Shown here piece by piece: positions 24,824-55,431 of a stretch of DNA of 64,000 nt. Position 1 is the first letter of the stretch. Every line of letters starts with the position of its first letter. Both the position numbers and the translations under genes were made by a program. Source of the DNA: a virus; UHGV virus genome UHGV-0064883, one strand, 5' to 3'. The notes under the pieces are model-generated. The model saw only the letters and a program-made list of their open reading frames with translations, was not told the origin of the DNA and made no database searches.

Positions 24824-24946
24824 ATTTGCAATGATTGCAAATTTTTTTCGTGAATTGAATACTTTTATCTTGCAATTTTCATTTTTTAGTGTTATAACAA
24901 ACCCATCAAAGGGCGAAAGCCCTGAATCAATAAAAACATCACCAAT
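24824..24946 (+). promoter_or_regulatory. Palindrome (copy 6, ATTTGCAATGATTGCAAAT) plus promoter/leader cassette
   Basis: Palindrome followed by TTGCAA-17nt-TATAAC and a leader containing the hairpin GGGC-GAAA-GCCC, then an A-rich stretch to the ATG. Confidence 0.5.
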
Positions 24947-26215
24947 ATGAGCAAGACCGAAATTGATATTACCAAGCCGCTTAATCTGGCTGACCGCCAA
25001 GAACTCCGTTTTATCGGATATGCCACGCAGAATAACGACCCGAAGCTGTCTCCGGGGGATGTCATCTATTTTCTGAAACAGGCGCGGGACGATAAAAACA
25101 TCCCTGTTTATGACGTTGCCACTACCAAAAAGGGCAAGGTAGCCGTGGAAAGTCTTTACGCTGACGAATTTGAAGTTGTGGATGCGGATTCCGCGCCGGA
25201 AGTCGCCCCGGTTGCGGCCCCTGCCAAAAAGAAAAAGACGGAACTCAAGAAGGTGGAGGAACCCGGCGAAGAGCAGCCCGCCCCCAAGGCTAAGAAGGCC
25301 AAAGCCGTCAAAGCGGAAGCTGCCCCTGCCAAGAAGACCAAGAAGGAAAAAGTGAAGGCCGAAGCCCCCGTGGAAGTGCAGGAGCCGCAGGAAGTCCAGG
25401 AACCTGCAGCTGAGGTTGAATCCGTTCCCGCCGTCCAGCCCGAAGCCGTCAAGGAGGTTGAAGACATCAAGCCCGCCTCCACTCCGGAATTGGGAATGGA
25501 TGCCGTAACCCTTAACTTGATTCAGGAACACGGCGGGAATGCCTGTGCCGCCGCCCTTGCCATTGCCAAGGATTCTGAGGCTAAGCGATTCCTTCTTGGC
25601 GGCGTGCTGCTGTACATTCAAAAAACAAAAGTTTATGAAGAAGAAAAGGATTCTGCCGGAGTTCCACGCTTCACCGGGCAAAAGGGCTTTGCCATGTTTT
25701 GCGAGCAATACATCGGGCTTTCCTACTCTTCCGCAAAATTGTACCAGCGCATCTATGCTAATTTTACCAGCATGGGCCTCGGTGTTGAGGATTTTCGGAG
25801 AGTGGGTACGGCTAAGGCCCGTGAAATTGTGCAAATGATTGAGCTGGATTTTTCCAAGGCTGATGTCGAAGAGGCTATTCATATCGGCGAAACGAAAACG
25901 CACGAAGAACTGCACTCCCATGTGAGCTCGAAAATGCAGGATGCTGAAATTGAGGGGCATGGACTGCGTGATAAAGTCAAATGCACGCTCTACAAATTCG
26001 AGGTGTTTGCCGACCAGGAAGACATCATCAACGCCGCCATCCGGCTGGCAATGGACAACGGGGACATCAAGGACACCGATCAGAACGCCCTTGGACGCGC
26101 GTTTGTTTCCATTTGCTCCGACTATTTGCAGGCATATAGCAAAGTGGCGCAGCCGACGGTGGACGAAACTGAAGAATTTCAGGAATCTGTAGCCCAGGAA
26201 TCCGTCAATGCCTGA
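24947..26215 (+). CDS. Hypothetical protein with histone-H1-like Lys/Ala/Pro-rich linker (putative DNA-binding)
   Basis: 422 aa. A KKAKAVKAEAAPAKKTKKEK region lies between the N- and C-terminal domains. Confidence 0.45.
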   Translation: MSKTEIDITKPLNLADRQELRFIGYATQNNDPKLSPGDVIYFLKQARDDKNIPVYDVATTKKGKVAVESLYADEFEVVDADSAPEVAPVAAPAKKKKTELKKVEEPGEEQPAPKAKKAKAVKAEAAPAKKTKKEKVKAEAPVEVQEPQEVQEPAAEVESVPAVQPEAVKEVEDIKPASTPELGMDAVTLNLIQEHGGNACAAALAIAKDSEAKRFLLGGVLLYIQKTKVYEEEKDSAGVPRFTGQKGFAMFCEQYIGLSYSSAKLYQRIYANFTSMGLGVEDFRRVGTAKAREIVQMIELDFSKADVEEAIHIGETKTHEELHSHVSSKMQDAEIEGHGLRDKVKCTLYKFEVFADQEDIINAAIRLAMDNGDIKDTDQNALGRAFVSICSDYLQAYSKVAQPTVDETEEFQESVAQESVNA

Positions 26216-26924
26216 CATTTCCAGATTTCGGTCTGAACTGGCTCGTTTCTTTTCGGAGGACGGGCCAGGCTCCCAGCCTACCTTCCCTGATGCCTGCGAG
26301 GGCGACTTGTGCCTATGGACGGACGGGTCAGCTCTTGGAGACGCAAGGCAACTGGGAACTGGCGGAGGTTCCGCTTTTGCAGTGACAATAGTAGCCGGAG
26401 GCGTGGAGCATTATGTAGCCTCCTACGCGGAGCGCCTGGAGCCACAATCGGATTCCGATTGCGGGGTGACGGTAAACTACGCGGAAATCAAGGCTATCCA
26501 TAACGGGCTTTCCTACCTCCAAAAATTGGACGGGGCCGAGGACAAGACCATCCATGTGTTTTCCGATTCCGCTTACGCCGTTTCCGTCCTGTCCAAATGG
26601 GTCCATCGCTGGGAACGGTCGGAGCGTACTTTGGAATCCGTAGCAAAATCCGGCTGGTTGTGCGCCGACGGGTGGCCTGTGGCTAACGCCCGGCTGATAA
26701 AAGATACGCACCGGCTGAGAGTGGAATTTTTCCGGGTTGTGTATCATAAGATCGCCGGGCATTCTGGGTACTTTTTTAACGAGCATGCCGACCATCTGGC
26801 ATCCATCGCCAGAAACGGTCAGCTTTCTGACGCGCTGGTTGCGGATTATAATTGGCAGGGCCAGCGAATAAAATCGGTGCGCTTTGATTACGCAACCGGA
26901 AAAGTGGTGCTGGAAGAGTATTAG
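26208..26924 (+). CDS. Ribonuclease H (RNase HI-like)
   Basis: LWTDGSA (catalytic D), AEIKAIHNGL (E), HVFSDSAY (D) and HKIAGHSG...NEHADHLA (H/D) motifs. Confidence 0.8.
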   Translation: MPDISRFRSELARFFSEDGPGSQPTFPDACEGDLCLWTDGSALGDARQLGTGGGSAFAVTIVAGGVEHYVASYAERLEPQSDSDCGVTVNYAEIKAIHNGLSYLQKLDGAEDKTIHVFSDSAYAVSVLSKWVHRWERSERTLESVAKSGWLCADGWPVANARLIKDTHRLRVEFFRVVYHKIAGHSGYFFNEHADHLASIARNGQLSDALVADYNWQGQRIKSVRFDYATGKVVLEEY

Positions 26925-26932
26925 CGTTTTCA

Positions 26933-27075
26933 ATTTGCAACGATTGCAAATTTTTTTCTCAAAAAGATTCTTTTTTCTCTTGCAATTCATCAAAAATAAT
27001 GCTAACTTATATTCATCAAAGGGAGGGAATCCCTAAGAGAAAAAACCTAAAAACCGAATTAGAAAGACCAAAACA
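26933..27075 (+). promoter_or_regulatory. Palindrome (copy 7, ATTTGCAACGATTGCAAAT) plus conserved promoter/leader cassette
   Basis: T-run, then TTGCAA-17nt-TAACTT, then CATTCATCAAAGGGAGGGAATCCCT with the hairpin AGGGA/TCCCT, then an A-rich leader to the ATG. Confidence 0.55.
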
Positions 27076-28933: not shown

Positions 28934-29094
28934 TAGCCACTTCTAGCCTTTTTCTTTTATAGGACGTTATAACTTTTAATTTTTTTACTCTTTTTTCTTG
29001 CAATAAAAAAATATCATGCTTAATATTTCATTGTTCCCATCATGGAACATCAGTAAAAAAACAATACTCCCATTGGAGACATTAAAAAAATAAT

Positions 29095-30120
29095 ATGAAT
29101 ACAAACCAACCATCACAGAGCGCAAGGCGCGGTAAATCCGCATTGGAGCAGGCCGCAAAAAGTCAGCAGCAGCAATTCAGCCGGCAGCGCATGCCGTTCA
29201 GGTTTTTCCTCCCCAAAGGCGGCGAGGCTAAAATCGTCATTCTTGATTATGCTTTTGCCACCGACGACGGAACCGGAAACGGGCTTGTCATCAAGGAGCA
29301 TAATTTGAAAAAGCCTGACGGGACGTTCGGGGATTTTCAGCCCTGCACTTCGGAGCGCGGGCATTGTGATATTTGCGAAACCTATAAGAAAGAATTCGCC
29401 CCGTATTACGCCGTAGTCATGTCCATTATTGACTGGCGGCCGTACACCAACAAAAACGGGGAGACCGTCCAAGGCTCCAAAAAGTTGCTGGTCATTAAAA
29501 TGTGGCAGCGCGACAAGTGGTACGAGCTTCAAGAAGTCGCGTTCGCGCAGAACGGCAAGCGCGGCATGCGGGGCATGACCCTCCGGATGAAACGGAGTAT
29601 GGACGCGAAGAGCAGCAGCATTGGCGAGCCTGTGGCGTTTACTTCCCCCGCATCAATGGCCGGGCGCATGTGCGGATTCATGTCGGAGGAAGCTATGTTG
29701 ATACGATTTGGCGGGCAGGATATTGTTGGACGCGACGGCAAGGTCTATCAGAAGGCCGGAGACGGCATCAAGCCGTTCAACTACGACGAGCTTTTCCCGG
29801 AACCGGAACCCATCAATGAATTTTCCAACTCCAATTCCCGGTCTTCCGGTGATGCGGATTTTGGTGACGATGAAGACTTCGGTCAGGATTTGCAGGACGG
29901 TAACAGCGCGTCCGGAGATTTCGACCCGGAAGATTTCCGCCCCTCGGCAGACCAGGACGGCGGGGAAGATTACCTTAACGCCGACGCGGATTTTGCCGGT
30001 GATGAAGATTTTGAGCAGGAGCCTCCCGCCCGCACCAGAGGACGCCGCGTGCCTGACCCGGAAGAACCGGGGCAGCCGGGCCAAAGCCAGGATGATTTTG
30101 ATGATGACATTCCCATGTAG
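29095..30120 (+). CDS. Single-stranded DNA-binding protein (T4 gp32-like zinc motif, acidic C-terminal tail)
   Basis: CTSERGHCDIC is a Zn-ligand cluster. An Asp/Glu-rich C-terminal tail ends DDDIPM, like the SSB DDDIPF tail. Confidence 0.5.
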   Translation: MNTNQPSQSARRGKSALEQAAKSQQQQFSRQRMPFRFFLPKGGEAKIVILDYAFATDDGTGNGLVIKEHNLKKPDGTFGDFQPCTSERGHCDICETYKKEFAPYYAVVMSIIDWRPYTNKNGETVQGSKKLLVIKMWQRDKWYELQEVAFAQNGKRGMRGMTLRMKRSMDAKSSSIGEPVAFTSPASMAGRMCGFMSEEAMLIRFGGQDIVGRDGKVYQKAGDGIKPFNYDELFPEPEPINEFSNSNSRSSGDADFGDDEDFGQDLQDGNSASGDFDPEDFRPSADQDGGEDYLNADADFAGDEDFEQEPPARTRGRRVPDPEEPGQPGQSQDDFDDDIPM

Positions 30121-32123: not shown

Positions 32124-32142
32124 AATTTGCAACGATTGCAAA
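32124..32142. repeat. 19-bp palindrome ATTTGCAACGATTGCAAAT (copy 8)
   Basis: 34 nt upstream of the next ATG, followed by a T-run. Confidence 0.9.
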
Positions 32143-32176
32143 TTTTTTTCGCAAAAACCAGAAACAGAAATAAACC

Positions 32177-35362: not shown

Positions 35363-35928
35363 ACATCCTCGGCATTGACCCGTCCCTGACTGCCACCGGG
35401 CTTTATTTGCGGGAAACCGGGCTTATGGCCGCCCCGGAATCCACGCTGATTGCCCCAAAAAATTTGAGGGACATGGAGCGGCTGTGTTTTATCCGCGACT
35501 TCCTTCTCGGATTCATCAACAGAGACCGGGCGTTTTTTCCCGAATTGGCGGTCATTGAAGGGTACGCAATGGGGGCGAAAACCCATACGCACGACCTCGG
35601 AGAAGCCGGAGCCATGCTGAAAACTGCGGTTTACGAGGCGGGAATTGACCTGCTGATAGTCCCGCCCGCCACGCTGAAAAAGTTCATCACGGGAAGCGGG
35701 AACAGCAAAAAACAAGTGATGATGGTGGAAGCGCTTTCTCGGTATCATGTTAAAATCACCGATGATAATATTTGTGATGCGTTCTGCCTGACACACTTTG
35801 GGGAAGCCTGGTACGCGGCTAATGCTTTTGGCCGTACAGCGGGAGGAATCGGCATCACAAAAAGCCAGTATGCCTGCCTGTCCGCTGCCCGGCTGGTTCC
35901 TGGCCGCAAACGGTCGTCTCGGAGATAA
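35359..35928 (+). CDS. RuvC-family Holliday junction resolvase
   Basis: MNILGIDPSLTATGL (catalytic D), AVIEGYAM (E), and a C-terminal DDNICDAF (D). Confidence 0.75.
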   Translation: MNILGIDPSLTATGLYLRETGLMAAPESTLIAPKNLRDMERLCFIRDFLLGFINRDRAFFPELAVIEGYAMGAKTHTHDLGEAGAMLKTAVYEAGIDLLIVPPATLKKFITGSGNSKKQVMMVEALSRYHVKITDDNICDAFCLTHFGEAWYAANAFGRTAGGIGITKSQYACLSAARLVPGRKRSSRR

Positions 35929-35953
35929 CCGGCTGCCGGTTTTTCCTTTTTTC

Positions 35954-36093
35954 AATTTGCAATCATTGCAAATTTTTTTCGCTGACTGTGTAATTTTATC
36001 TTGCAATTTCTAAAAAATAATGCTAAATTGCATTCATCAAAGGGAGGGAAACCTCCCAAGAATAAAAAACCTAAAAACCTGAAAGACAAGATT
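35954..36093 (+). promoter_or_regulatory. Palindrome (copy 9) plus conserved promoter/leader cassette
   Basis: ATTTGCAATCATTGCAAAT, then TTGCAA-17nt-TAAATT, then CATTCATCAAAGGGAGGGAAACCTCCC (hairpin GGGAGG-GAAA-CCTCCC), then AAAAACCTAAAAACCTG and the ATG. Confidence 0.55.
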
Positions 36094-36306: not shown

Positions 36307-36549
36307 CCCGTCAAGACAATGAAAGTACAAGCTAAAATTATCACCGAACAGGAGTACAAATGGTACGGGGGTTGCCCCTCAAGATGCGGAACACGGAATG
36401 GGAAAATCGGTATAAAGAAAACGGCATTAAGTTTGAAACCCGCGTGAATATCTAAAATCCTCAAGCCCCTCTTTGGAGGGGCAAGACCCCTCCACCGCAA
36501 CCAGAAAAACTTTTCAGCAGTAAAAATTTTCGGTGGTACTAATTAGGTT

Positions 36550-36596
36550 CTGCCCCTTTTCCGGCCTTTCGTTGCTGGGAAGGGGGCAGTTTTTTT
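36550..36596 (+). terminator. Intrinsic terminator
   Basis: CTGCCCC...GGGGCAG stem with a TTCC/GGAA inner stem, followed by T7. Confidence 0.5.
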
Positions 36597-36599
36597 GCG

Positions 36600-36762: not shown

Positions 36763-36803
36763 CCCCTAATTCGGAGTGATGCCCGGATTAGGGGCCTTTT
36801 TTT
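36763..36803 (+). terminator. Intrinsic terminator
   Basis: CCCCTAAT-(16 nt)-ATTAGGGG stem followed by CC and T7. Confidence 0.5.
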
Positions 36804-36806
36804 CTC

Positions 36807-36952
36807 CATTTGCAATGATTGCAAATTTTTTTCTCAAAAAAGATTCTTTTTTCTCTTGCAATTTCTAAAAAAGAATGATAAATTACATTCATCAAAGGGA
36901 GGGAATCCCTGAGAGAGAAAAACAAAAAACCTAAAAAACCTGTTAGACTAAA
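36807..36952 (+). promoter_or_regulatory. Palindrome (copy 10, ATTTGCAATGATTGCAAAT) plus conserved promoter/leader cassette
   Basis: TTGCAA-17nt-TAAATT, then CATTCATCAAAGGGAGGGAATCCCT (hairpin AGGGA/TCCCT), then an A-rich leader. Confidence 0.55.
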
Positions 36953-40503: not shown

Positions 40504-41358
40504 ATGGCAACTGATAATGATGACGAGTTTTCCGGTTTTTTCGGGGACGATTCCGGCGGCTTTTTCGACGAACCCCAGGAACCTTCCAGCGCCCCAGATA
40601 CCCCGGAATCACAGGAGGAAGCCCCGCCGGAGGAACCTGATGAGGACGAGGATGACGGGGAACTTAATGAGCTTGCCGGGACTGGCGCCGGAACGGTCGC
40701 ACGCCTGAACCCGGAGATTCGGCATCAGATTATGGCCCAAGCTAATTCCCGCGCCTGGACGCGCCATGAACGCCATGTTGTCATGCGCCGGGCCATGTCG
40801 GCGGGAAAGCTGGAAGAGATTATTGACTGGTACCCGCGTTCCGGACAGAGCATCCACATTTTATCCTGCGGGGAAGTAGATTTGTTTTCCTACCTTCATT
40901 TCATGCTTCGGCAACGCCCCTATGCCTATATTTTGCTTTCGACATTTAGCTTAGGTTATATGGAAATTCGCAACCTGCACGAATATCTGGAAAAAGGAGT
41001 GATTGGCCGCCTGGATGTGTACGCTGGAAGTATCTTCCGCAACCGGACTATCCGGACGCGGGAATATGATGCGCTGGTTGCCCTGCATCAGAGATTTCCG
41101 CATTGTTTTTGCGGTCTGGCAAATGTCCACGCGAAAGTCATTGCCGGGATTGACCGAGATAACGGGGAAGGTGATTTTGTCGTGGAGGCCAGCGCTAACG
41201 CCAACCTGAATTTCCGTGTTGAGCAGGCTTGTCTGACGATGGACACCGATTTGGCGCTTTTTTACAAGGAGGCGTTTGACGGCGTGGATTGCCCGCAGGA
41301 TGCCCAGTATTTTAAGAATGTGAGACGGACTCCGTGGGTGGTTGATCGGAAAAGCTGA
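40504..41358 (+). CDS. Hypothetical protein with acidic N-terminus
   Basis: 284 aa. The N-terminus is rich in D, E, F and G. Confidence 0.45.
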   Translation: MATDNDDEFSGFFGDDSGGFFDEPQEPSSAPDTPESQEEAPPEEPDEDEDDGELNELAGTGAGTVARLNPEIRHQIMAQANSRAWTRHERHVVMRRAMSAGKLEEIIDWYPRSGQSIHILSCGEVDLFSYLHFMLRQRPYAYILLSTFSLGYMEIRNLHEYLEKGVIGRLDVYAGSIFRNRTIRTREYDALVALHQRFPHCFCGLANVHAKVIAGIDRDNGEGDFVVEASANANLNFRVEQACLTMDTDLALFYKEAFDGVDCPQDAQYFKNVRRTPWVVDRKS

Positions 41359-41493
41359 TTTGCAATCATTGCAAATTTTTCCCGGCAATCCTGATTTTTT
41401 CTCTTGCAATTTGTCAAAAAGAATGCTAACTTATATTCATCAAAGGGAGATAAAACCTTAAAAATAAAAAACCTAAAAACCTGTTAGAATAAG
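41358..41493 (+). promoter_or_regulatory. Palindrome (copy 11) plus conserved promoter/leader cassette
   Basis: ATTTGCAATCATTGCAAAT, then TTGCAA-17nt-TAACTT, then CATTCATCAAAGGGAGATAAAACCTT (stem AAGG/CCTT), then an A-rich leader. Confidence 0.5.
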
Positions 41494-42609: not shown

Positions 42610-42720
42610 ATTATTTTTTGTGCTTTTTATCTTGCAATTTCTGAAAGATAATACTAAAGTACATTCATCGAGGGGAGAGAAAAACCCTGAGAATAAAAAC
42701 CTGAAATATAATAAAACACG
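42610..42720 (+). promoter_or_regulatory. Promoter/leader cassette without the palindrome
   Basis: TTGCAA-17nt-TAAAGT, then CATTCATCGAGGGGAGAGAAAAACCCT (stem AGGG/CCCT), then an A-rich leader to the ATG. Confidence 0.45.
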
Positions 42721-43104
42721 ATGAGCAACAATTATTGTTTAAAAGCTTCCGGCAAGCAGATTGTCGAACTCGCGCGGTTAATGGATGTGCATTCCAGACG
42801 CACCGGATTTGATGAGCCGATATTGTACCTGGGAGATGCCTGCCGCCTGGAACCCATTCCCTACTCCAAAGTGTATGCGACTTGCGACACGCCCCGGATA
42901 TTTTCCGCATGTCTGGTGGATGAATCCAGCTCCCATGACCTGATGGAGCTGACTGACCTGTTTGGTGTGGTAGGCTTGTTCCCTCATCACCCCCGGCTGC
43001 TTCCGTCTTATTTCAGCACGCAAAAATTAAAGTTCTGCGGGGAATATGTCTCCGTATATTGCGCGTATATTTACGTTCCTGAACATCCTGATTTTTTGCA
43101 ATGA
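42721..43104 (+). CDS. Hypothetical protein
   Basis: 127-aa ORF. Confidence 0.4.
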   Translation: MSNNYCLKASGKQIVELARLMDVHSRRTGFDEPILYLGDACRLEPIPYSKVYATCDTPRIFSACLVDESSSHDLMELTDLFGVVGLFPHHPRLLPSYFSTQKLKFCGEYVSVYCAYIYVPEHPDFLQ

Positions 43105-43112
43105 TTGCAAAT
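43094..43112. repeat. 19-bp palindrome TTTTGCAATGATTGCAAAT (copy 12)
   Basis: Overlaps the stop of the previous gene; 37 nt before the next ATG. Confidence 0.85.
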
Positions 43113-44287: not shown

Positions 44288-44429
44288 ATTTGCAACGATT
44301 GCAAATTTTTTTCTCAAAAAAGATTCTTTTTTCTCTTGCAATTTATAAAAAATAATACTAAATTGCATTCATCAAAGGGAGGGAAACGTCCCAAGAATAA
44401 AAAACCTAAAAACCTAAATTACTGATACC
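44288..44429 (+). promoter_or_regulatory. Palindrome (copy 13, ATTTGCAACGATTGCAAAT) plus conserved promoter/leader cassette
   Basis: TTGCAA-17nt-TAAATT, then CATTCATCAAAGGGAGGGAAACGTCCC (stem GGGA/TCCC), then an A-rich leader. Confidence 0.55.
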
Positions 44430-44690
44430 ATGAATGCTAAAACCGAAACCAAAACGACAATGTACAAATGGACTGCTTGCAACCCTTACAACTACCTCAA
44501 TGGAGTTGTAGAAGCCCGCACTTTGCTTGGAGCTGTCCGGGCGGGGCGCAAGTATGTGGAAGGTGAACTTGGCGGCGAGGGAGAAATCCGCATCTGGGAA
44601 AGCATTGACGGAGGCCGCACATGGAAGCTGGTGAGGACGGATGAAAAAGGCATCCTTTCCATGACTGGATGGGCAGTTCGGCACGAGTAA
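44430..44690 (+). CDS. Small protein, paralog family A (with 55432-55683)
   Basis: YKWTA...TLLGAVRAGRKYVEGEL...ESIDGGRTWKLV aligns with the product of 55432-55683. Confidence 0.45.
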   Translation: MNAKTETKTTMYKWTACNPYNYLNGVVEARTLLGAVRAGRKYVEGELGGEGEIRIWESIDGGRTWKLVRTDEKGILSMTGWAVRHE

Positions 44691-44767
44691 TCGTGCCTTT
44701 CCCCTCCTATTTTTAATTAACCAAGCAAAAAGATATATCAAGCAAAAAAAACGAAAGGAACTGAAAC

Positions 44768-44938
44768 ATGTATAAAATGTGCCGTGATTGCAGTTGGAGA
44801 GACCAGGAAGACGGCTGTTGCTGGAATTCGCGAAGCTTTCGATACCTTACCGAAGTGGACGAAGATGAGGAAATCTGCGAAGAATACACGAACCGGATGA
44901 AGAAACCCAGGACGCGTAATGGTAATGAAAACTCCTAA
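44768..44938 (+). CDS. Possible small Cys-containing protein (56 aa, below the ORF-track cutoff)
   Basis: MYKMCRDCSWRDQEDGCCWNSRSF... Overlaps the next gene start by 14 nt. Confidence 0.25.
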   Translation: MYKMCRDCSWRDQEDGCCWNSRSFRYLTEVDEDEEICEEYTNRMKKPRTRNGNENS

Positions 44939-45290
44939 ATGCTGGATGTGCGGACAAAAGCTGACCACAAACTGGGTACCTTCTGTGGTGGATTATCACA
45001 CCGGATGCTACCGCGTTGGATGCCGTCATTGCGGCTGGGCAACTTATCTTACAAGTGCAACGGAGGAACAGGCGATAGATTCCGCGAAAGAATTCATGGC
45101 GAAAATTCCTCCCACCATGCGGGTGCGGGAAGGGGACACCGTCCTCATGCGGTTCGGGGAAGAGGTCAAAAGTGCAAAAATACGAGCCGTAACCAATACG
45201 ACTTTGTTTGAAACCGATGAAGGAATCGTATTCCCGGACAGCATCGAAAAATGGCCCTGGGAATTTGAACAGAAAGGAGGGGATAAATAA
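44925..45290 (+). CDS. Zinc-ribbon protein, paralog family C (copy 1 of 3)
   Basis: MKTPKCWMCGQKL...C-x-x-C, then FMAKIPPTMRVREGDT, then C-terminal WPWEFEQ. Shared with the genes at 56824 and 57165. Confidence 0.45.
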   Translation: MKTPKCWMCGQKLTTNWVPSVVDYHTGCYRVGCRHCGWATYLTSATEEQAIDSAKEFMAKIPPTMRVREGDTVLMRFGEEVKSAKIRAVTNTTLFETDEGIVFPDSIEKWPWEFEQKGGDK

Positions 45291-45538
45291 TGAAACGGAA
45301 CCCTCACATCATCGTCCAGCAGGTCTGCCCCATGAAGAAAACCGACGATGGGAAATATGAAGTTCAGGCCGCGATTGTGCACCACAAAGGGATTATCGCC
45401 CGCTATCGCATGGAGTACCCCACGAAACGGCATGCCCGGTGGGCGCAGCACCTTATTTGCACGACAAAAAATCATACACGTCTGCGAGTATTTGGTGAAT
45501 TAAAGGCTATCATTGACGGAAAGGAGAATAAACAATGA
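45290..45538 (+). CDS. Small hypothetical protein
   Basis: 82 aa. ATGA overlap with the previous stop. Confidence 0.35.
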   Translation: MKRNPHIIVQQVCPMKKTDDGKYEVQAAIVHHKGIIARYRMEYPTKRHARWAQHLICTTKNHTRLRVFGELKAIIDGKENKQ

Positions 45539-45918
45539 TGCGGAACACATTTTACTGGGAGGCCGCCCGGTACATATCTGTGGCAGTCATACCCGGCGCG
45601 GGGGCAAGGTATTTCACTTATGTCAACGAATCTGACGCACGCCGCCATGAAACCAGCATGAGGGAGTGGCACGGCTCCCAGGGCAGAATCACATATTACA
45701 CCATCCAAGACGCCGGGAACATCCTGCGTGCGGCGGAACATTGGACCATGTGCCGGGATTGTAAACGATGCCGCCCCTCCCAGCCCCATCTTCACCAACC
45801 AGGGAAGCAGCATGAATGCGACCTCCTGGGAACGGATGGGCACTGGTACGTGGACCCGGAGAAGGATGGCTGCACCTGGGGAACCAGAAAGGAGGAAGAA
45901 AATGAAACTAAATCCTGA
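45535..45918 (+). CDS. Small Cys-rich hypothetical protein
   Basis: 127 aa. MCRDCKRC...C cluster. ATGA overlap. Confidence 0.35.
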   Translation: MMRNTFYWEAARYISVAVIPGAGARYFTYVNESDARRHETSMREWHGSQGRITYYTIQDAGNILRAAEHWTMCRDCKRCRPSQPHLHQPGKQHECDLLGTDGHWYVDPEKDGCTWGTRKEEENETKS

Positions 45919-46258
45919 ACAGAAGACTGTTTATGAATATGGAAAAGCAGTCAAGGACCTCAGCAACATAATTAAAGAGATTCGCAATAAGGCCCGAATG
46001 CAGTTTGCAACGGAGTATCACGAGCTACCTCTACAATATCGTGCAGAGTTATTGAATTATTTTGGTTTTGAGACCTTTGTTGATGAAGTTCGATATAGGC
46101 GGGCCGAGTGCCGGGCGTTTATGGTCCCAAATGACTGTAGCAAGTGTATTCACTTTCCCAATAAATATCCCGGTTGGAAATGTGTCGGCTGTAAATGGGA
46201 TATATCTTACAAAAATGTTAAATCACGTTGGGAACCAAGAAAAGAGAACGAAAACTAA
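45901..46258 (+). CDS. Cys-cluster protein, paralog family B (with 56076-56636)
   Basis: MKLNPEQKTVYEYGKAV... parallels MKLTLEQKAFYEYGRAV at 56076. CSKCIHF...CVGC cluster. Confidence 0.4.
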
Positions 46259-46647
46259 TGAAAAAGACTATTGAACAAACAGCCTTTTATTGGTATGGGT
46301 ACTATAAAGCCTGCCTGAAATTAAAAATTAAAGAGGCCCGTAATTATGCTGAGTGTGAATACGAGAGACAATACAGTGAGCTGACACCAGCGGGGCGGGA
46401 AGAGTGTTTGGTATATGCCGGGGTTAGGTCTTACATCATTCTGACCAGAAGGGCACGCCGCTCATGCCGGTTATTTGGCATACCCAGCGCTGAACGGTCA
46501 TGCGTTAATTGCGCGTATGTCGATTTATTGCATTACCAGCCGCCATGCAATAACTGCCTTCGTTCCCCGTATGCCGTGCACGGAGAAACGACCGACGACG
46601 CCTGGAAGCCGATTGGAAAATGGCAAAACCCATACAAGCGGGCTTGA
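46258..46647 (+). CDS. Small Cys-rich hypothetical protein
   Basis: Internal ATG of ORF 46228. C-x-x-C...C-x-x-C motifs. Confidence 0.35.
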   Translation: MKKTIEQTAFYWYGYYKACLKLKIKEARNYAECEYERQYSELTPAGREECLVYAGVRSYIILTRRARRSCRLFGIPSAERSCVNCAYVDLLHYQPPCNNCLRSPYAVHGETTDDAWKPIGKWQNPYKRA

Positions 46648-47558: not shown

Positions 47559-49049
47559 ATGCACCAGGACACCGACGCAGAAAATGCCGCCAGTCAGAGC
47601 CGGTTAAATGAAACCGCCATGCTGATTCCCCGGCTGCTGTTAAAAGCCCGTACTGATTTTATTGCATTTTTGCTTGCCATTTCCGACGACGAATCCGGCT
47701 ACATCCTGTCCCGAATGCACCTGTTTATTGCGGGCAAGCTCAATGATACCGTCACCCGGAAGGACGTGCCGAGGAATTACACCATTTCCGTACCGCCCCA
47801 GCACGGGAAGTCCTCCCTGATTGTGCGGTATGTCGCGTGGCTGGTTGGGTCTTATCCCAGATTGTGCGTTGCCCTGACTGGCTTCTCCGCCGAATTGATG
47901 GGTCAGATGCTCCGGCAGGTCACATCCATTATGGATTTGCCTGTGTACCAGGTGATTTTTCCCGGTGTGAAAGTGAAGCCGAAGGATGACCGCTGGGACT
48001 ATAAACGGTTCACCAATGACGCTATTATTTATGCTAAGCCGGCAGGCTCCAAGCTGACCGGGAGGCGGGTGGACATTCTCATTATTGACGACCCCCATGC
48101 CGGGCGTGCCGAAGCCGAATCCCCCACTATCCGCAACCGCGTTGTGCAGTGGGCGGTTGCAGACTGCTTTTCCCGCCTTTCGCCCCATTGGCGGGTGTTT
48201 GTCATTGGGACCCGGTGGCATCCGGAAGACCTCATTGGACATCTCACCGGGCGGGAATACAATAAACGGCTTGAAATGCTTGGCAATACCGCCATGAAAT
48301 TTGAAGTCATCAAGATTCCCGCTATCTGCGAAGACCCGGCTACCGACCCCCTGGGGCGGAAGGCTGGGGAAGTGGCGTTTCCGGAAGAGCGTGACTTGGA
48401 GTTTTTAACGTCCATCCGTGGGGCCATGACCACGACGGAGTGGAAATCCCAGTACCAGCAGGAGCCGGTCACGTCCAAGGGCGGGCAGGTCAACGCGGAT
48501 GATTTCAACCTCATTTCCCCGGAGGAAGTGCCGTGGAGCGAACTGACGGCCATAGGCTCCGGCTGGGACTTGGCCGCAACCGACAAAACGGCATCCGACT
48601 GGACCGTGGGCGCGTGCGGGGCGCGGACAAAGGATGGCCGCCTGTATATTTTCGACCAGTTCCGCAAACAAATGCAGATTCCAAAACTGCTTCCGGCCAT
48701 TGAAGCCCGCGCCCTGGCATGGAAGGATATGTACGGGGCCAATCAGCTGGGCGTGGAAGGCGTGGGGGGCATGGTGGGATATTACCAGCAGCTTCGGCAA
48801 ATGCTTTTAGGAAAAATCAGCGTGCGGCTCAAAAATCCCCCGGTCAAAGGAGGGGGGAAACTGGTGCGGGCACAAAACTGGCTGGCCTTGGTGGAGGCAA
48901 AAAAAGTGTATCTGGTACAGGCCCCCTGGGTGCGGTCGTTTTTGGAAGAGGTGGAAGTATTCCCGGACGGGGACCACGATGACCAGGTGGACAGCGTATC
49001 CATTCTTTACGAGCTTCTGTTTCTCTCCGCCCGCATTCTGGTCGGATAA
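47559..49049 (+). CDS. terL: Terminase large subunit
   Basis: ATPase Walker A-like VPPQHGKSSL and Walker B DILIIDDPH. C-terminal RNase-H-fold nuclease region with DGDHDDQVDSVS. Confidence 0.85.
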   Translation: MHQDTDAENAASQSRLNETAMLIPRLLLKARTDFIAFLLAISDDESGYILSRMHLFIAGKLNDTVTRKDVPRNYTISVPPQHGKSSLIVRYVAWLVGSYPRLCVALTGFSAELMGQMLRQVTSIMDLPVYQVIFPGVKVKPKDDRWDYKRFTNDAIIYAKPAGSKLTGRRVDILIIDDPHAGRAEAESPTIRNRVVQWAVADCFSRLSPHWRVFVIGTRWHPEDLIGHLTGREYNKRLEMLGNTAMKFEVIKIPAICEDPATDPLGRKAGEVAFPEERDLEFLTSIRGAMTTTEWKSQYQQEPVTSKGGQVNADDFNLISPEEVPWSELTAIGSGWDLAATDKTASDWTVGACGARTKDGRLYIFDQFRKQMQIPKLLPAIEARALAWKDMYGANQLGVEGVGGMVGYYQQLRQMLLGKISVRLKNPPVKGGGKLVRAQNWLALVEAKKVYLVQAPWVRSFLEEVEVFPDGDHDDQVDSVSILYELLFLSARILVG

Positions 49050-49061
49050 GCCGCCAATAAA

Positions 49062-49080
49062 ATTTGCAATCATTGCAAAT
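49062..49080. repeat. 19-bp palindrome ATTTGCAATCATTGCAAAT (copy 14)
   Basis: 13 nt after the terL stop. Followed by TTCAGAGAC, then a 320-nt leader containing a C8 tract (49348-49355). Confidence 0.9.
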
Positions 49081-49403
49081 TTCAGAGACTACGGCCAAAA
49101 AGCTTTTTTCCTTTACTTTTCACTTTTCCGGCACAAACAATACCAGCCCATGAAGTTCCACAGCCTTTCCATGCTTTTTACGCTCCGTGGCCCTCCCCGC
49201 CCTGTTTTTCAGCTTGTCCCCCAGGCAATCCGCGAACGGTCGGATGCGCGAGGACGGGAACGCATCATTTCCCGCGTCTGAAATAAATGGCTTTCACCAT
49301 CAGGCGCAATCTCCGCATTTCCTTTTTCTGTTGCCTTCGCCGGATTGCCCCCCCCTCGTCAGGAAGGGAACGGCAAACCGTAACCATAAACAAAAAGATA
49401 GAA

Positions 49404-50279
49404 ATGACAGTTCAAACCTTACCGGCAACCGTGCCGGACAGCGTTTCTGCGACCTTGCGCGTCGTCATGAAGCCCGTGGAATCAATTCACCCCTACGAAA
49501 ATAACCCCCGCTACAACGACAGCGCGGTTCCCTACGTCAAAAACTCAATTCAGGAGTTCGGCTTCAAGGTTCCGATTATCGTCGATGAAGCCGGAAGCAT
49601 TGTCTGCGGTCACACGAGGTACAAGGCGGCCCTGGAATTGGGCATGAGCCATGTGCCTTGCATTGTCGCTTCGGATTTGACCCCAAAGCAGATTCAGGCG
49701 TTCCGCCTTGTTGATAACAAGGTGTCGGAGTTTTCAAGCTGGGATTTTTCCAAACTTGAAATTGAGATAGGGGAGCTGGATGCCGAATTTAATCTTGATG
49801 ACTTCGGTTTTTTCTCCGATTCAGAGCGGGCGGGAAGCTCGCCGGCGGATGTGGGCAGTGCCGCAGAAATGCAGGATGATACTGCGAGGGATGACCGGAA
49901 TATCTATACAGGACGCATCATTACTCCGGTTTATGAAATTACCGGGGATTGTCCAAAAACCGAAGAGCTGGTTGACCGCACCAGAGCGGAATCCCTGCTG
50001 GAAGAGATTGACCGGACCCCAGGGCTTCCGGATGCCGTGCGTGACTTTTTGCGTATTGCCGCCATGCGGCACTATGTCCTGCATTTCGACAGGATAGCCG
50101 AGTTTTACGCCCATGCGGTCCCTCCTGTGCAGCGGCTCATGGAAAACTCCTGTCTGGTCATTATTGATTATGACCGCGCCATTGAGCTTGGATATGTGCA
50201 AATGGCACGTGCCCTGGCCGATGAATACGACCGAGAATACCCGGAAGGGGAGGAACAGGAAGGAGGCGGCGAATCATGA
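49404..50279 (+). CDS. ParB-like N-terminal (ParB/Srx) nuclease-domain protein 1
   Basis: IHPYENNPRYND...GFKVPIIVDEAGSIVCGHTRYKAALELG matches the ParB N-terminal domain with its GxxR arginine motif. The C-terminal domain is shared with copy 2. Start is an internal ATG of ORF 49287. Confidence 0.65.
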   Translation: MTVQTLPATVPDSVSATLRVVMKPVESIHPYENNPRYNDSAVPYVKNSIQEFGFKVPIIVDEAGSIVCGHTRYKAALELGMSHVPCIVASDLTPKQIQAFRLVDNKVSEFSSWDFSKLEIEIGELDAEFNLDDFGFFSDSERAGSSPADVGSAAEMQDDTARDDRNIYTGRIITPVYEITGDCPKTEELVDRTRAESLLEEIDRTPGLPDAVRDFLRIAAMRHYVLHFDRIAEFYAHAVPPVQRLMENSCLVIIDYDRAIELGYVQMARALADEYDREYPEGEEQEGGGES

Positions 50280-51211
50280 TGCGGCACTCTGATTTCTGCG
50301 TCTTGATTATTTCCCATGGACGGGCCGGGAGGGTGAAAACCCTGAACGCGCTTGAGCGTTTTGGCTACAGCGGCCCCTGGTACATCGTCATCGACAATGA
50401 GGATTCACAGGCCGGAGACTACCTTAATTGCTACGGGAGTGACCACGTTGTTGTTTTTGATAAACCCCTTGAGGCATCCAGGCTGGACATAGCGGATAAT
50501 TTTACAGGCCGTCTTGGGCGCAAAAGCACCGTGTACGTACGCAATGCGAGCTTTGACATTGCCCGCCGCCTGGGATTCCGGTATTTCATGGTGCTGGACG
50601 ACGATTACGACTATTTCCGTTTCGTATTGGACAGCAACCGCCGCTATACTTGCCGGCGCTGTGTCTGTCTGGACACAATCCTTGACATCTGCCTCGATTA
50701 CTTCACCCGTACACCGGCCCTTGCCACCATAGCGTGGCTTCAAGGCGGCGACCTGCTGGGAGGGGCCAACTCCAACAGCCTTTTCAGCCTCCGGCGAAAA
50801 GCCATGAACAGTTTTATCTGTGACACGGAACGCCCCTTTTCCTTCATGGGCCGGTTTAATGAAGACGTGAACACCTACATCACTCACGGAAACCGGGGAG
50901 TGGTCATGTTCTCAATTACGGAATTGGCGCTTAACCAGGCCAGCACCCAGCAGACGGCGGGAGGGATGACGGAAGCCTACCAGGAAAACGGAACCTACGT
51001 GAAATCGTTTTACAGCGTCATGCATATGCCGTCTGCGGTGAAAATCCGGACAATGGGCGAACGTTACCGAAGAATCCACCATGCTATTACATGGAATAAT
51101 TGTGTACCGAAAATCATCCGTCCGGAGTACCGGAAACCGGATATTGTGCGGGGTGACAGGAGAAAACGCGGCAGGAGCCGAAAAAAACTGCTTGCAATTC
51201 CGGCCCCTTAA
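50276..51211 (+). CDS. GT-A-like putative nucleotide-sugar transferase 1 (DxD-like motif)
   Basis: Hydrophobic beta1 CVLIISHGR, WYIVIDNED, and FMVLDDDYDY at about aa 105, consistent with a GT-A fold DxD. ATGA overlap with the ParB-like gene. Paralog at 54342. Confidence 0.35.
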   Translation: MMRHSDFCVLIISHGRAGRVKTLNALERFGYSGPWYIVIDNEDSQAGDYLNCYGSDHVVVFDKPLEASRLDIADNFTGRLGRKSTVYVRNASFDIARRLGFRYFMVLDDDYDYFRFVLDSNRRYTCRRCVCLDTILDICLDYFTRTPALATIAWLQGGDLLGGANSNSLFSLRRKAMNSFICDTERPFSFMGRFNEDVNTYITHGNRGVVMFSITELALNQASTQQTAGGMTEAYQENGTYVKSFYSVMHMPSAVKIRTMGERYRRIHHAITWNNCVPKIIRPEYRKPDIVRGDRRKRGRSRKKLLAIPAP

Positions 51212-53419: not shown

Positions 53420-53438
53420 ATTTGCAATCATTGCAAAT
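53420..53438. repeat. 19-bp palindrome ATTTGCAATCATTGCAAAT (copy 15)
   Basis: Ends 20 nt before the ATG of the second ParB-like gene. Confidence 0.9.
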
Positions 53439-53458
53439 TTCAAAAATCGTTTTCGCAC

Positions 53459-54295
53459 ATGGAAATTGTAGATATTGCCGTAAAAGACCTGATTCCTTAT
53501 GATAAAAATCCGCGCCGTAATGATGAAGCGGCCGTCAAGGTGGCGGAATCCATTAAACAGTTCGGTTTTAAGATTCCCCTTGTGGTTGACCGCAATAATG
53601 TTGTTGTCTGCGGGCACACCCGTTTAAAGGCCGCAAAAAAGTTAAAGCTTAAAACTGTTCCCTGTATTCTCGCTGACGATTTGTCGGAAGACCAAATCAA
53701 GGCGTTCCGTCTGGTAGATAACCGGACGGCGGAAATCGCCGAATGGGATTTTGCCCTTTTAGAAGAGGAACTGGCGGACGTGCAGCTTGACATGACCGCC
53801 TTTGATTTCGACGACCTTTTGGCAGAAGAGGAAGCCGGAAGCGAAAACAGTCAGACCCCAGTAGGAGCCGAAAGGGAGGAAGAAAGCGCATCACCGGAGT
53901 CGCAAACTGCAGAAAATATGTACACGCAGCGCATCGTCACTCCGGTTTATGAGGTTACCGGAGATTGCCCGGAAGTGTCTTCCCTGGTGGACAAGGGCAA
54001 AGCGGAAGCGCTGCTGGAATCCATTAACCAAGCCCAGGAACTCCCGGATGATGTGCGGGAGTTTTTACGCATCGCCGCCGCCAGGCATTATGTTTTGCAT
54101 TTTGACCGCATCGCTGAATACTACGCCCACGCCCCGGCCCATATTCAGCGGCTCATGGAGGATTCCTGTCTGGTTATCATTGATTTTAACAAAGCCATTG
54201 AGCAGGGATATATCCGCATGTCCGAACGATTGGCCGCGCTGGCCAGCATAGACGAACAGGGCGCAACGGAAGAAGAAGACGAAGCGGACGAATAA
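53459..54295 (+). CDS. ParB-like nuclease-domain protein 2 (diverged paralog of 49404-50279)
   Basis: LIPYDKNPRRND...GFKIPLVVDRNNVVVCGHTRLKAAKKL. The C-terminal YTQRIVTPVYEVTGDCPE...LRIAAARHYVLHFDRIAEYYAHA is about 70% identical to copy 1. Confidence 0.65.
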   Translation: MEIVDIAVKDLIPYDKNPRRNDEAAVKVAESIKQFGFKIPLVVDRNNVVVCGHTRLKAAKKLKLKTVPCILADDLSEDQIKAFRLVDNRTAEIAEWDFALLEEELADVQLDMTAFDFDDLLAEEEAGSENSQTPVGAEREEESASPESQTAENMYTQRIVTPVYEVTGDCPEVSSLVDKGKAEALLESINQAQELPDDVREFLRIAAARHYVLHFDRIAEYYAHAPAHIQRLMEDSCLVIIDFNKAIEQGYIRMSERLAALASIDEQGATEEEDEADE

Positions 54296-54341
54296 CACAG
54301 GCCGCTTTGATTTTTTTACCGCAATAACTTTTCTTTTTTTT

Positions 54342-55205
54342 ATGCTGACGCATTCCGATTTTTGCACGTTTATTTTGTCTCATGGACGGCCAAACAATAT
54401 CAGAACCCTGCACCCGTTGCTAAACACCGGAAATTACAGCGGCCCCTGGTACATCATTATCGACAATGAGGACCCCACGGCGGAAACCTACTATCAGCTT
54501 TACGGCTCCGACCGGGTAATCATGTTTGACAAGGAGGCCGAAGCCCGTCGCCTGGATATTGCAGATAATTTCGTCCACATGAGCCGCAAGACCATTACCT
54601 ATGCCCGCAATGCCTGTTATGACATTGCCAAAAACTTGGGCTACACGTATTTTTGGCAGCTGGATGACGATTATTGCCGGTTTCGGTACGTGACCGACCA
54701 GGCCGGAAAATACGTGTACCACAGCATCCGCCACCTGGACGAAGCGTTGAACGCGACCCTTGATTATTATAAAAGCGTTCCTTCCCTGACCCTGTTGTCC
54801 TGGATGCAGGGCGGGGATTTACTGGGCGGCGCCAACAGCCAGTCTCTGACCGTGGTGAAGCGAAAAGCCATGAACAGCTTTATTTGCTCTACCGAGCGCC
54901 CCATAAAGTTCCGGGGCCGGATGAATGAGGACGTAAACACCTATGTTTCCGAGGGCAACCGGGGAAAGCTCATTATGATGGCGAATTGTGCCGGCATTTT
55001 ACAGACCCCCACCCAGATTAACGACGGAGGAATCACGGAACTTTACAGGTCTTGCGGCACTTACACCAAGGCAATGTACACTGTGATGCACATGCCCTCA
55101 GTAACTACAGTGGGCATGATGCACAGCACTTTTCCCCGGATTCACCACACAATAAATTGGAACAACTGCGTTCCGAAAATTATCCGGCAGGAGCTTAAAA
55201 AATAG
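54342..55205 (+). CDS. GT-A-like putative nucleotide-sugar transferase 2 (paralog of 50276-51211)
   Basis: MLTHSDFCTFILSHGRP...WYIIIDNED...YFWQLDDDYCRF; about 55-60% identical to copy 1. Confidence 0.35.
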   Translation: MLTHSDFCTFILSHGRPNNIRTLHPLLNTGNYSGPWYIIIDNEDPTAETYYQLYGSDRVIMFDKEAEARRLDIADNFVHMSRKTITYARNACYDIAKNLGYTYFWQLDDDYCRFRYVTDQAGKYVYHSIRHLDEALNATLDYYKSVPSLTLLSWMQGGDLLGGANSQSLTVVKRKAMNSFICSTERPIKFRGRMNEDVNTYVSEGNRGKLIMMANCAGILQTPTQINDGGITELYRSCGTYTKAMYTVMHMPSVTTVGMMHSTFPRIHHTINWNNCVPKIIRQELKK

Positions 55206-55293
55206 AGCTTTTCCGGGAAGAAAGACCCTTCATCTATCGGCCCTGTCTGGATATTAGCCCGGCAGGGCCGCAGTATATCTTTCTCTTTTTCTC

Positions 55294-55431
55294 AATTTGC
55301 AATCATTGCAAATTTTTTTTCTCAAAAAAGATTCTTTTTCTCTTGCAATTTATAAAAAATAATGCTAAATTACATTCATCAAAGGGAGGGAATAACTCTC
55401 CTACAGCAAAAAGCCTGAAAGTTAAAACATA
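55294..55431 (+). promoter_or_regulatory. Palindrome (copy 16) plus conserved promoter/leader cassette
   Basis: ATTTGCAATCATTGCAAAT, then TTGCAA-17nt-TAAATT, then CATTCATCAAAGGGAGGGAATAACTCTCCT (stem GGAG/CTCC). Confidence 0.55.

Follow-up and report, generated by a model that had tools for sequence, protein, structure and literature searches.

Repeated promoter and leader cassettes in a tailed gut phage

We analysed a 64,000-nucleotide stretch of the virus genome UHGV-0064883 (the window, meaning the whole 64 kb) and focused on a composite intergenic element, here called the cassette, that precedes eight of its genes. The window belongs to a tailed phage whose genes lie nearly all on the plus strand; it looks lytic and of human-gut origin, with a genome of roughly 85-89 kb. 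Besides the genes for the tape measure protein, DnaB, DNA polymerase and TerL (Table 1), we identified genes for RNase H, a primase-like protein, a helicase, a RecA/UvsX-like protein and RuvC. The cassette consists of a -35 element (TCTTGCAAT), a 17-nt spacer, usually a TGn (6/8), a TAAATT-like -10 element, a conserved block at the predicted transcript start, a small hairpin and an A-rich leader that runs to the ATG. A 19-bp dyad, which is a distinct element, stands upstream of most copies and is usually followed by a run of T.

A preliminary description of this stretch had reported eight copies of a promoter and shared-leader cassette. We find all eight, at the positions it gave and with its order of parts, and the repeated architecture is accompanied by motifs enriched far beyond chance. 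However, four promoters of the same kind had been missed: a minus-strand cassette at 10703 and the sites at 15271, 17291 and 28996. TCTTGCAAT occurs 13 times in the window against 0.75 expected, with 12 copies intergenic and oriented with the downstream gene, and we find 12 sites of the form TCTTGCAAT-N16/17-TAnnnT with a T-rich region upstream. CATTCATCAAAGGGAG, allowing up to 3 mismatches, was observed 7 times against 0.87 expected.

Table 1. Cassettes, related promoters, dyads without a promoter and landmark genes in the 64-kb window (-35, -10 and +1 are predictions).
Feature	Coordinates	Strand	Dyad	-35	-10	Predicted +1	Leader structure	ATG	Remarks
Cassette 1	24824..24946	+	24824-24842, then T7	TTGCAA 24870-24875	TGT + TATAAC 24893-24898	24905	AGGGC-GAAA-GCCCT 24910-24923	24947	
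Cassette 2	26933..27075	+	26933-26951, then T7	26980-26985	TGC + TAACTT 27003-27008	27015	AGGGA-GGGAA-TCCCT 27020-27034	27076	acidic 109-aa protein
Cassette 3	35955..36093	+	35955-35973, then T7	36001-36006	TGC + TAAATT 36024-36029	36036	GGGAGG-GAAA-CCTCCC 36042-36057	36094	GC-rich intrinsic terminator upstream, 35927-35941
Cassette 4	36808..36952	+	36808-36826, then T7	36856-36861	TGA + TAAATT 36879-36884	36891	hairpin 36896-36910	36953	strong terminator upstream, 36763-36794
Cassette 5	41358..41493	+	41358-41376, abutting upstream stop codon	41404-41409	TAACTT 41427-41432	41439	marginal AAGG/CCTT pairing only, 41443-41459	41494	
Cassette 6	42610..42720	+	none	42632-42637	TAAAGT 42655-42660	42667	AGGG/CCCT with long loop, 42672-42688	42721	
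Cassette 7	44288..44429	+	44288-44306, then T7	44336-44341	TAAATT 44359-44364	44371	hairpin 44377-44392, one uncompensated mismatch	44430	
Cassette 8	55295..55431	+	55295-55313, then T8	55343-55348	TAAATT 55366-55371	55378	7-bp hairpin 55384-55402	55432	paralogue of 44430 gene
Minus-strand cassette	10628..10721	-	10703-10721	TTGCAA 10675-10670, 37 nt from dyad centre	TATGAT 10653-10648	10641 (ATCAAG)	11-nt leader without hairpin	10630-10628	open reading frame 10262-10630
TCTTGCAAT promoter, leaderless type	15271..15310	+	none	15273-15278	TATAGT 15296-15301			15308	ATG 7 nt after -10
TCTTGCAAT promoter, leaderless type	17291..17330	+		17293-17298	TATATT 17316-17321			17328	
TCTTGCAAT promoter, different leader	28996..29097	+			TAATAT 29021-29026		unrelated hairpin GTTCC-CATCAT-GGAAC 29033-29048 at predicted 5′ end; second small hairpin; A-rich end	29095	putative SSB-like gene, from its sequence
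Bare dyad	2896..2914								18 nt after upstream stop, 25 nt before ATG 2940 (tail module)
Bare dyad	6911..6929								13 nt after tape measure stop, 8 nt before ATG 6938
Bare dyad	13552..13570								last base C; after last tail gene, at edge of AT-rich non-coding region
Bare dyad	15524..15542								33 nt before ATG 15576 of AAA-ATPase
Degenerate dyad (3 mismatches)	18498..18516								9 nt before ATG 18526
Dyad then T7, no promoter	32125..32143								33 nt before ATG 32177
Bare dyad	43094..43112								central TGA is stop codon of gene 42721-43104; 37 nt before ATG 43150
Bare dyad	49062..49080								12 nt after TerL stop; position kept in 81-kb relative and sister species
Bare dyad	53420..53438								20 nt before ATG 53459 (ParB_N-domain gene)
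Bare dyad	59427..59445								3 nt after upstream stop; precedes 801-aa tail-fibre-like gene
Bare dyad	63751..63769								8 nt after stop of gene 62987-63742
Tape measure gene	3709-6897								
DnaB	20675-21946								
DNA polymerase	21921-24803								
TerL	47559-49049								

Promoter architecture and predicted transcript start

The cassettes resemble sigma-70-type extended -10 promoters: TTGCAA agrees with a TTGACA-like -35 element at 4/6 positions and TAAATT with the -10 element at 4/6, the spacer is 17 nt, and the conserved block follows the -10 at +7. The -10 element had been described as TAA(A/C)TT, which is accurate except at cassettes 24824 and 42610. A generic promoter scan missed the cassettes because they match 8/12 consensus positions and its threshold was 9. 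The invariant block ATCAAAGGGAGG, of the form ATC(A/G)A(A/G)GGG, starts exactly 7 nt after the -10 in 8/8 cassettes, and the minus-strand copy, which has a 16-nt spacer, carries ATCAAG at the same position.

With ten gut-metagenome genomes and a sister species (TerL 94% identical) added, the set grew to 40 different 5′ leader segments. In 36 distinct copies, drawn from 11 genomes, nothing changes in the T-rich stretch that leads into the -35, in TCTTGCAAT, in the TG or in the -10, whereas the spacer and the 3 nt that follow the -10 differ among copies. From the fixed placement of the block and the variable 3 nt between it and the -10, we therefore infer that transcription starts at the A of ATCAAAGGGAGG.

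The Bacteroidota sigma-ABfr promoter has -33 TTTG and -7 TAHHTTTG elements, in which T-12, A-11, T-8, T-7, T-6 and G-5 are nearly invariant (PMC6847099). The cassettes read TAAATT(G/A)(C/T), and T-6 and G-5 are absent in 8/8; however, their geometry of TTG-N20-TA with a start 12 nt after the TA is compatible with a sigma-ABfr promoter. A loose form of the promoter pattern gave chance-level matches only in IMG/VR.

A predicted hairpin at the 5′ end of the leaders

Folded singly, the leaders form hairpins in which a stem of 4-7 bp, built on a GGG:CCC core, is closed by a loop of 4-10 nt, and all types fold except the AAGG/CCTT type of cassette 41358. To evaluate pairing we left the invariant 5′ arm intact and shuffled the variable sequence that follows it; p values for single copies range from 0.0025 to 0.6 and combine to a Fisher p of ~1e-4 over 8 hairpin types, copies that are not independent of one another. 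The AAGG/CCTT stem, listed in the preliminary description among the conserved hairpins, is no better than chance (p 0.6), and the stem of 55295, given there as 4 bp, is in fact 7 bp long (GGGAGGG/CUCUCCU with two G-U pairs). An outer helix, ATTC/GAAT, appears in some folds; we do not count it as belonging to the RNA, because its 5′ half is variable and lies upstream of the predicted +1. The GGGAGG had been judged not to act as a Shine-Dalgarno (SD) sequence, and this view stands: it lies 45-55 nt from the ATG in a genome without SD enrichment.

The changing stems had been read as compensatory variation. What holds of this reading is that a hairpin is kept just after the predicted start; the variation itself is mostly not covariation. 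The 5′ arm is an invariant AAAGGGAGGG, and the differing 3′ arms pair with it in differing registers, which is why an alignment with MAFFT and RNAalifold returned 0 consensus pairs. Within the family with a 7-bp stem, 49/49 cells are paired; changes in the 3′ arm are limited to C/U exchanges facing G, and the sole change in the 5′ arm (G to A) faces a U. The resulting G-C to G-U to A-U series recurs at a different pair in the 6-bp family, and the tolerance of G-U in both families points to pairing in plus-strand RNA. Each register family contains 1 double change. Additionally, hairpin types B, C or C′ stand before the same gene in different strains (the 44430 gene has B or C in other strains), indicating that types are swapped between cassettes by recombination and that the copies are therefore not independent samples. 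We conclude that the variation reflects mostly register shifts and the swapping of a few hairpin modules between cassettes, that a 5′-proximal hairpin is selected but loosely specified and is real as a tendency, and that strict covariation is at most suggestive. An unrelated hairpin occupies the same 5′ position in the 28996 leader.

The preliminary description had suggested that the hairpin may be a specific handle coordinating an early regulon, as the target of an RNA-binding protein, an RNase site or a translational enhancer. Such a role would account for the invariance of the 5′ arm and its preceding bases in nearly all 40 variants from two species, which exceeds what the structure needs, as well as for the recurrence of GNRA-like GAAA loops. 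A conserved 5′ end may also be a family trait, as an 81-kb relative (IMGVR_UViG_3300042560_001229) likewise has an invariant block, ATGAAATCCACC, at its transcript start. However, loop sequence and length, stem length and register vary freely, the types are interchangeable before the same gene, some copies are nearly stemless, and no Rfam family matches. Constraint on the promoter and initial transcribed sequence, or homogenisation by recombination, explains the constant 5′ arm equally well, and we consider a specific handle unlikely.

Cassette evolution and the genes served

Pairwise identity inside the cassettes is 52-84% (mean 71%), compared with 49-51% in the 150-nt flanks. Because identity ends at the cassette edges, the cassettes are not recent segmental duplications, a possibility that had been raised earlier and that would have left near-identical flanks. 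Cassettes 44288 and 55295 are 83% identical, yet the proteins of the two gene modules that they precede share only 31-41% identity, so that the cassette sequence appears to be kept by selection and/or gene conversion. The genes 44430 and 55432 are, as previously described, a paralogue pair (41% identity, E 3e-15). The whole small-gene module has been duplicated together with its cassette (44430-46647 and 55432-57506), one copy lying among structural genes, and the whole of 54245-58859 is missing from an 83.6-kb IMG/VR contig.

Strains differ from one another in the region from 35.9 to 47 kb. In eleven genomes the locus flanked by RuvC and gene 36953 holds 0, 1, 2 or 3 units of cassette plus ORFan, each unit opening with a full cassette, and two IMG/VR relatives have the same extra unit. 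The spacer, discriminator and hairpin modules are found in many combinations. Such module swapping and presence/absence polymorphism would be expected if the cassette were a selfish or neutral recombination module whose conservation, hairpin included, is due to gene conversion instead of selection on RNA structure, and the covariation tests (below) are indeed non-significant. On the other hand, the cassettes are conserved as promoters are, with -35, TG and -10 fixed and spacer and discriminator free; at least 9 sequence-distinct 3′ arms all complement the 5′ arm, in which G-to-A changes occur only opposite U, and the 28996 leader has its unrelated hairpin in the same place. We regard the reading of the cassette as mainly a selfish or neutral module as highly improbable.

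The genes behind the cassettes had been described as small (70-127 aa), which fails for the first cassette, whose gene encodes a 422-aa protein conserved in the 81-kb relative. For 7/8 of these first genes we found no Pfam or annotated PHROG family. The protein encoded at 27076 is extremely acidic, as had been noted, with an isoelectric point (pI) of 4.05 and 32 Asp plus Glu among 109 residues. The proposed early character of the served genes, which are ORFans, this acidic protein and replication genes, fits their content and is compatible with early expression.

A genome-wide 19-bp dyad

The palindrome had been treated as a cassette part present in seven copies. We find instead that it is an element of its own, spread over the genome: ATTTGCAATNATTGCAAAT occurs 19 times in the window against 0.03 expected, and 11 dyads have no promoter on either side. 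All copies lie at gene boundaries, being either intergenic (intergenic sequence makes up ~9% of the window) or overlapping a stop codon. The dyad has perfect 9+1+9 symmetry, and its variation in the window is confined to positions 9-10. By our estimate from the coordinates, it follows the upstream stop at a median distance of ~12 nt. Eight dyads lie 37-39 nt upstream of a -35 (7 on the plus strand, 1 on the minus), and 4 promoters have no dyad. Early-region dyads are followed by T6-T8 (8 copies) and most others by TTCA(A/G)A. The true terminators of the genome are GC-rich and of different sequence, and strong ones adjoin the upstream side of three cassette dyads, two found by the scan and one, upstream of 44288, read from the intergenic sequence.

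Could the bare dyads be middle or late promoter elements, or activator sites, serving the structural operons? It is the case that 7/11 of them lie in structural-gene regions, where we found no TCTTGCAAT promoter, and the half-site TTTGCAAT resembles the -35 region CTTGCAAT. The dyad also keeps a set distance from the -35, 37-39 nt in the window compared with 6-9 nt in the 81-kb relative, and the two spacings differ by ~2 helical turns. However, an ATG follows several dyads after 8-9 nt in the window, or 0-4 nt in relatives, which is too close to fit in a -10 and a start; the bare dyads are not followed by any conserved motif resembling a -10, TerL has no dyad upstream, and a symmetric promoter would fire both ways in a genome read from one strand. 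We consider a promoter or activator role very unlikely.

The dyad in other phages

In the sister species the dyads are 96.5% identical to those of the window, compared with 65% and 80% for their 40-nt flanks. The 81-kb relative has syntenic replication genes with 35-43% protein identity and carries ~30 copies of TTTG(C/A)AAC-N-GTTGCAAA at gene boundaries, including directly after the DNA polymerase and TerL genes. At least 12 of its dyads are followed, 6-9 nt on, by TTGAC(A/G)A(C/T)GAATC, a TAAGT-like -10 and the conserved ATGAAATCCACC. By our estimate from the listed sites, about 40% of its dyads carry TTTGAAAC, in which the middle of the stem would contain an A-G mismatch, and T-runs follow none of them; asymmetry is mild only, the left arm being degenerate. 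In a relative whose TerL is more distant, the corresponding positions hold TTGAAA-N4-TTTCAA. Two unrelated contigs of 45% GC (IMGVR_UViG_3300009502_001147 and 3300009175_000500) hold 15-19 copies of TTTGCAA-N3-TTGCAAA in 14 kb, the centre freely variable. By rough open reading frame (ORF) calls, several of these dyads lie inside large ORFs, and one site there resembles a TCTTGCAAT promoter. In the 81-kb relative, at least 8 unrelated genes open with the same ATGAAATCCACC (MKST...), 8-12 nt after a -10-like element, so that the cassette reaches into coding sequence; this would imply leaderless transcripts with a shared 5′ end.

We inspected dyad copies across these phages and found no compensatory arm changes, only single-arm variants. 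Since the arms are identical across deep divergence, the changes affect single arms and terminators elsewhere are GC-rich, we favour a DNA-binding factor over an RNA hairpin or terminator; this factor would recognise the dyad by its sequence and would probably be dimeric. Some termination may still be added by the weak hairpin and T-run in the early region.

The alternative is that the dyad acts as RNA, as an intrinsic terminator that insulates the cassette where a T-run follows, and, where none does, as a 3′-end stabiliser or as a processing site read by a protein specific for the hairpin. A median of ~12 nt after the stop is the classic position of a terminator, all variation in the window falls at positions 9-10, which would be the loop, eight copies have T6-T8, and flanking A/T extend the stem in several bare copies, to -12.1 kcal/mol at 15524. 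However, the stem is weak and AU-rich, and in the 81-kb relative it is broken by the TTTGAAAC mismatch in ~40% of copies and lacks a T-run. Structure alone would not require identical arms among phages whose proteins are 40% identical or unrelated, nor would it yield single-arm changes in place of compensatory ones. Additionally, three cassette dyads are already preceded by strong GC-rich terminators, and the same dyad serves the minus-strand promoter at the same 37-nt distance. Altogether we hold an RNA role of the dyad to be rather unlikely.

Several proteins were considered as the factor that binds the dyad. The ParB_N paralogues were rejected: each is paired with a TET/JBP-associated glycosyltransferase (TAGT), and neither was found in the 81-kb relative. 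The 422-aa protein of cassette 1 was rejected as a regulator, as its homologues are all >81% identical, its AlphaFold model is poor (pLDDT, the predicted local distance difference test, 48) and its Foldseek matches are meaningless. Pfam searches at E up to 5 returned nothing for this protein or for the basic proteins at 17328, 19481, 31569 and 35135. To our knowledge the dyad fits no sigma-54, lambda CII, IHF, LacI-family, CRP/FNR or CodY consensus, spacing or half-sites being wrong by inspection. A literature search on the dyad strings returned only primers and unrelated sequences.

The pair of ParB_N and TAGT (PF20691) genes is itself duplicated, at 49287-51211 and 53459-55205, the copies being 51-54% identical. 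An N6_Mtase-like gene lies at 38007-38783, and a PAPS-reductase-like ORF, recognised by sequence motif only, lies outside the window. Together these genes suggest DNA base hypermodification.

A model for the cassettes and the dyad

We propose that the cassette promoter is of the host housekeeping-sigma type and that host RNA polymerase would start at the A of ATCAAAGGG early in infection. The transcript would open with a G-rich tract folded on a nearby pyrimidine tract, forming a stem of 4-7 bp from about +6, after which an A-rich, unstructured leader without an SD sequence would run to the ATG. The hairpin would thus be a generic 5′ module, not a sequence-specific regulatory target, that protects the 5′ end and ties up the G-rich start, leaving the A-rich ribosome-loading region, which contains CCU, open; any ORF plugged in behind the cassette would be expressed alike. 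The cassettes would place ORFans, the gene for the acidic protein and replication genes in separate early transcription units, and would supply the homology for insertion, loss and swapping of units of cassette plus ORF. The dyad would be an operator- or stoperator-like site of a dimeric global regulator that separates transcription units and times read-through and/or promoter activity, joined in the early region to a T-run that perhaps adds weak intrinsic termination. This account as a whole, of recombining promoter/leader cassettes with a generic 5′ hairpin and a separate genome-wide dyad as binding site, seems to us probable, though well short of assured.

A number of observations weigh against it. 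The start site, promoter activity and early timing are all predictions from sequence, and it is uncertain which polymerase and sigma factor read the promoters: the -10 elements lack T-6 and G-5, yet the SD-less signature suggests a Bacteroidota-like host. Cassette 55295 is located among structural genes. The hairpin is dispensable in at least some contexts, as one type (41358) is nearly stemless and the window copy at 44288 has a pair-breaking C-to-G change that leaves an uncompensated G-G mismatch; moreover, the cassettes of the 81-kb relative combine dyad and promoter without any structured leader. Within-register covariation, tested on 7 and 4 sequences, was reached or exceeded by 194/500 and 273/500 shuffle controls and is not significant. 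As for the dyad, with T7 it resembles a weak intrinsic terminator (free energy -5.6 to -7.7 kcal/mol), and no dyad-binding protein was identified among the proteins and candidates examined.

A broader reading can be offered tentatively, as something possible that we would not count on. TTTGCAA-N3-TTGCAAA might be the site of a sequence-specific factor, supplied by phage or host, with which the genomes of several uncultured lineages are punctuated at gene boundaries. It would be a symmetric counterpart of the stoperator in lytic phages: by either blocking or permitting read-through, and by controlling the promoters next to it, it would set the early/late programme. The invariant 5′ end (AUCAAAGGGAGG with the hairpin) would be a second handle of this programme. 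Conserved across deep divergence, the dyad offers a handle for finding the master regulator of this phage group. The cassettes provide a testable map of predicted promoters, starts and leaders for this group, as well as ready-made promoter and insulated-leader parts for gene expression in the host.

Comparison with known systems

Among known systems, the cassettes are closest to the promoter early stem-loop (PeSL) cassettes of T4-like phages (Arbiol et al. 2010, PMC2839356; Comeau et al. 2014, PMC4122927). Both are ~100-bp repeated composite intergenic motifs that extend from the upstream stop codon in an AT-rich stretch and combine a host-type early promoter with a G-tract/C-tract stem-loop. 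In both cases the motifs cluster among the ORFans of hyperplastic regions, and relatives differ by insertion, deletion and replacement of cassette-bounded ORFs, with crossovers inside the cassette. Recombination between PeSL cassettes also yields excised mini-circles. The present cassettes, whose promoters are predicted, differ in belonging to another phage lineage and host, without SD sequences. In PeSL the stem-loop is a terminator; the G/C stem-loop of the present cassettes is part of the predicted transcript, downstream of the predicted +1, and is followed by A's, so that it is not terminator-like, and the other candidate, the dyad with T7, is weak. The invariant 19-bp dyad upstream, which also occurs alone throughout the genome, is an addition. 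Plug-in evolution of ORFans of the PeSL kind is not confined to T4-like phages.

In distribution, the dispersed dyad, a predicted site, most resembles the operators and stoperators of Cluster A mycobacteriophages, which are asymmetric 13-mers bound in an orientation-dependent manner by a monomer of a known repressor (L5 gp71) in temperate phages (PMC9283540, PMC6550527). In each case one short sequence occurs genome-wide (more than 20 stoperators; 19 dyads in 64 kb), beside early promoters and in short intergenic spaces or overlapping stop and start codons, in early and late operons alike. The dyad, in contrast, is a symmetric 17-19-bp element that serves the minus-strand promoter equally, and it lies 37-39 nt upstream of the -35 without overlapping it. 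We also found no repressor or lysogeny module, there being no repressor, integrase or helix-turn-helix family in the ~50 proteins scanned, a set that leaves out ~30 window proteins and the ORFs of the remaining 20 kb.

KorB, the ParB-family global regulator of plasmid RK2, binds as one dimeric protein to the OB operators, a short palindrome present at a dozen or more sites, some far from promoters. The dyad is likewise a dispersed palindrome with some copies beside promoters and some far from them; however, the ParB_N proteins of the phage sit in the TAGT modification pairs and were not found in the 81-kb relative, which has kept the dyad. For the leader, a parallel is provided by 5′-terminal stabiliser stem-loops of bacterial and phage mRNAs, such as that of the ompA 5′ untranslated region, in which a short hairpin of variable sequence near the transcript start precedes an unstructured initiation region. 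The cassette hairpin is similarly near the predicted start and is followed by an unstructured translation-initiation region. It differs in having ~6 unpaired nt before the stem, if the predicted +1 is right, and a 5′ arm of invariant sequence.

The phage, its host and other features of the window

Megablast of 24 kb against cultured phages gave no match, and TerL reached at most 33% identity in tblastn; the phage therefore has no annotated relative. Human gut metagenomes contain near-identical contigs of 83-89 kb in abundance; the TerL sequence is present unchanged in 513 collection blocks, of which 109 hold contigs >50 kb, so this phage ranks among the commonest in such metagenomes. The proposed 'Flandersviridae' are gut phages of ~85 kb with colinear genomes comprising a structural block, a DnaB/DnaG/PolA module and ~20 kb of unknown ORFs, with TerL/PolA monophyly and a contractile tail sheath (Benler et al. 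2021, PMC8008677). The size (85-89 kb), gene order and prevalence of the present phage fit this family as compared by its published description only. We found no tRNAs in the window and nothing meaningful in Rfam at gathering or permissive thresholds.

An SD-like motif precedes 19/79 phage genes, which by our estimate is near chance level and shows no SD enrichment. Upstream regions are A-rich, with A at -3 in 40/79 genes, and such an A-rich, SD-less pattern has been described for Bacteroidota (PMC6847099). A few genes of tight clusters (45290-45538, 45535-45918 and 57165-57506) have a strong SD-like AAGGAGG or GGAGA 6-9 nt before the ATG. A scan of 185,000 species genomes for the dyad gave single matches only, in diverse taxa, and identified neither host nor prophage; Bacteroidota make up ~1/3 of the dyad matches listed, which may merely reflect AT content.

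After the last tail gene lies a non-coding, AT-rich stretch of ~530 bp (13571-14100) with many inverted repeats of the TTGCAC/GTGCAA type (e.g. 13873-13898 and 14005-14030) and a (TA)9 run, which may be a replication origin or control region. It is followed by a holin-like ORF (14244-14562) and a lysozyme-like ORF (14572-15263), both assigned from reading the sequence only. Between 15576 and 18729 the window encodes an AAA+ ATPase (557 aa), a DUF1257-like protein, whose weak match (E 0.04) falls short of the Pfam cutoff, and a DUF2997 protein. Homologues of the ATPase (15576) and of the proteins encoded at 18005 and 18526 occur in the 81-kb relative. Finally, the region 36307-36807 has no long ORF and contains two very strong intrinsic terminators ~200 nt apart, at 36550-36589 (16-bp stem) and 36763-36794 (12-bp stem); it may be a small RNA gene, and close relatives carry a 183-nt insertion at 36378-36391.

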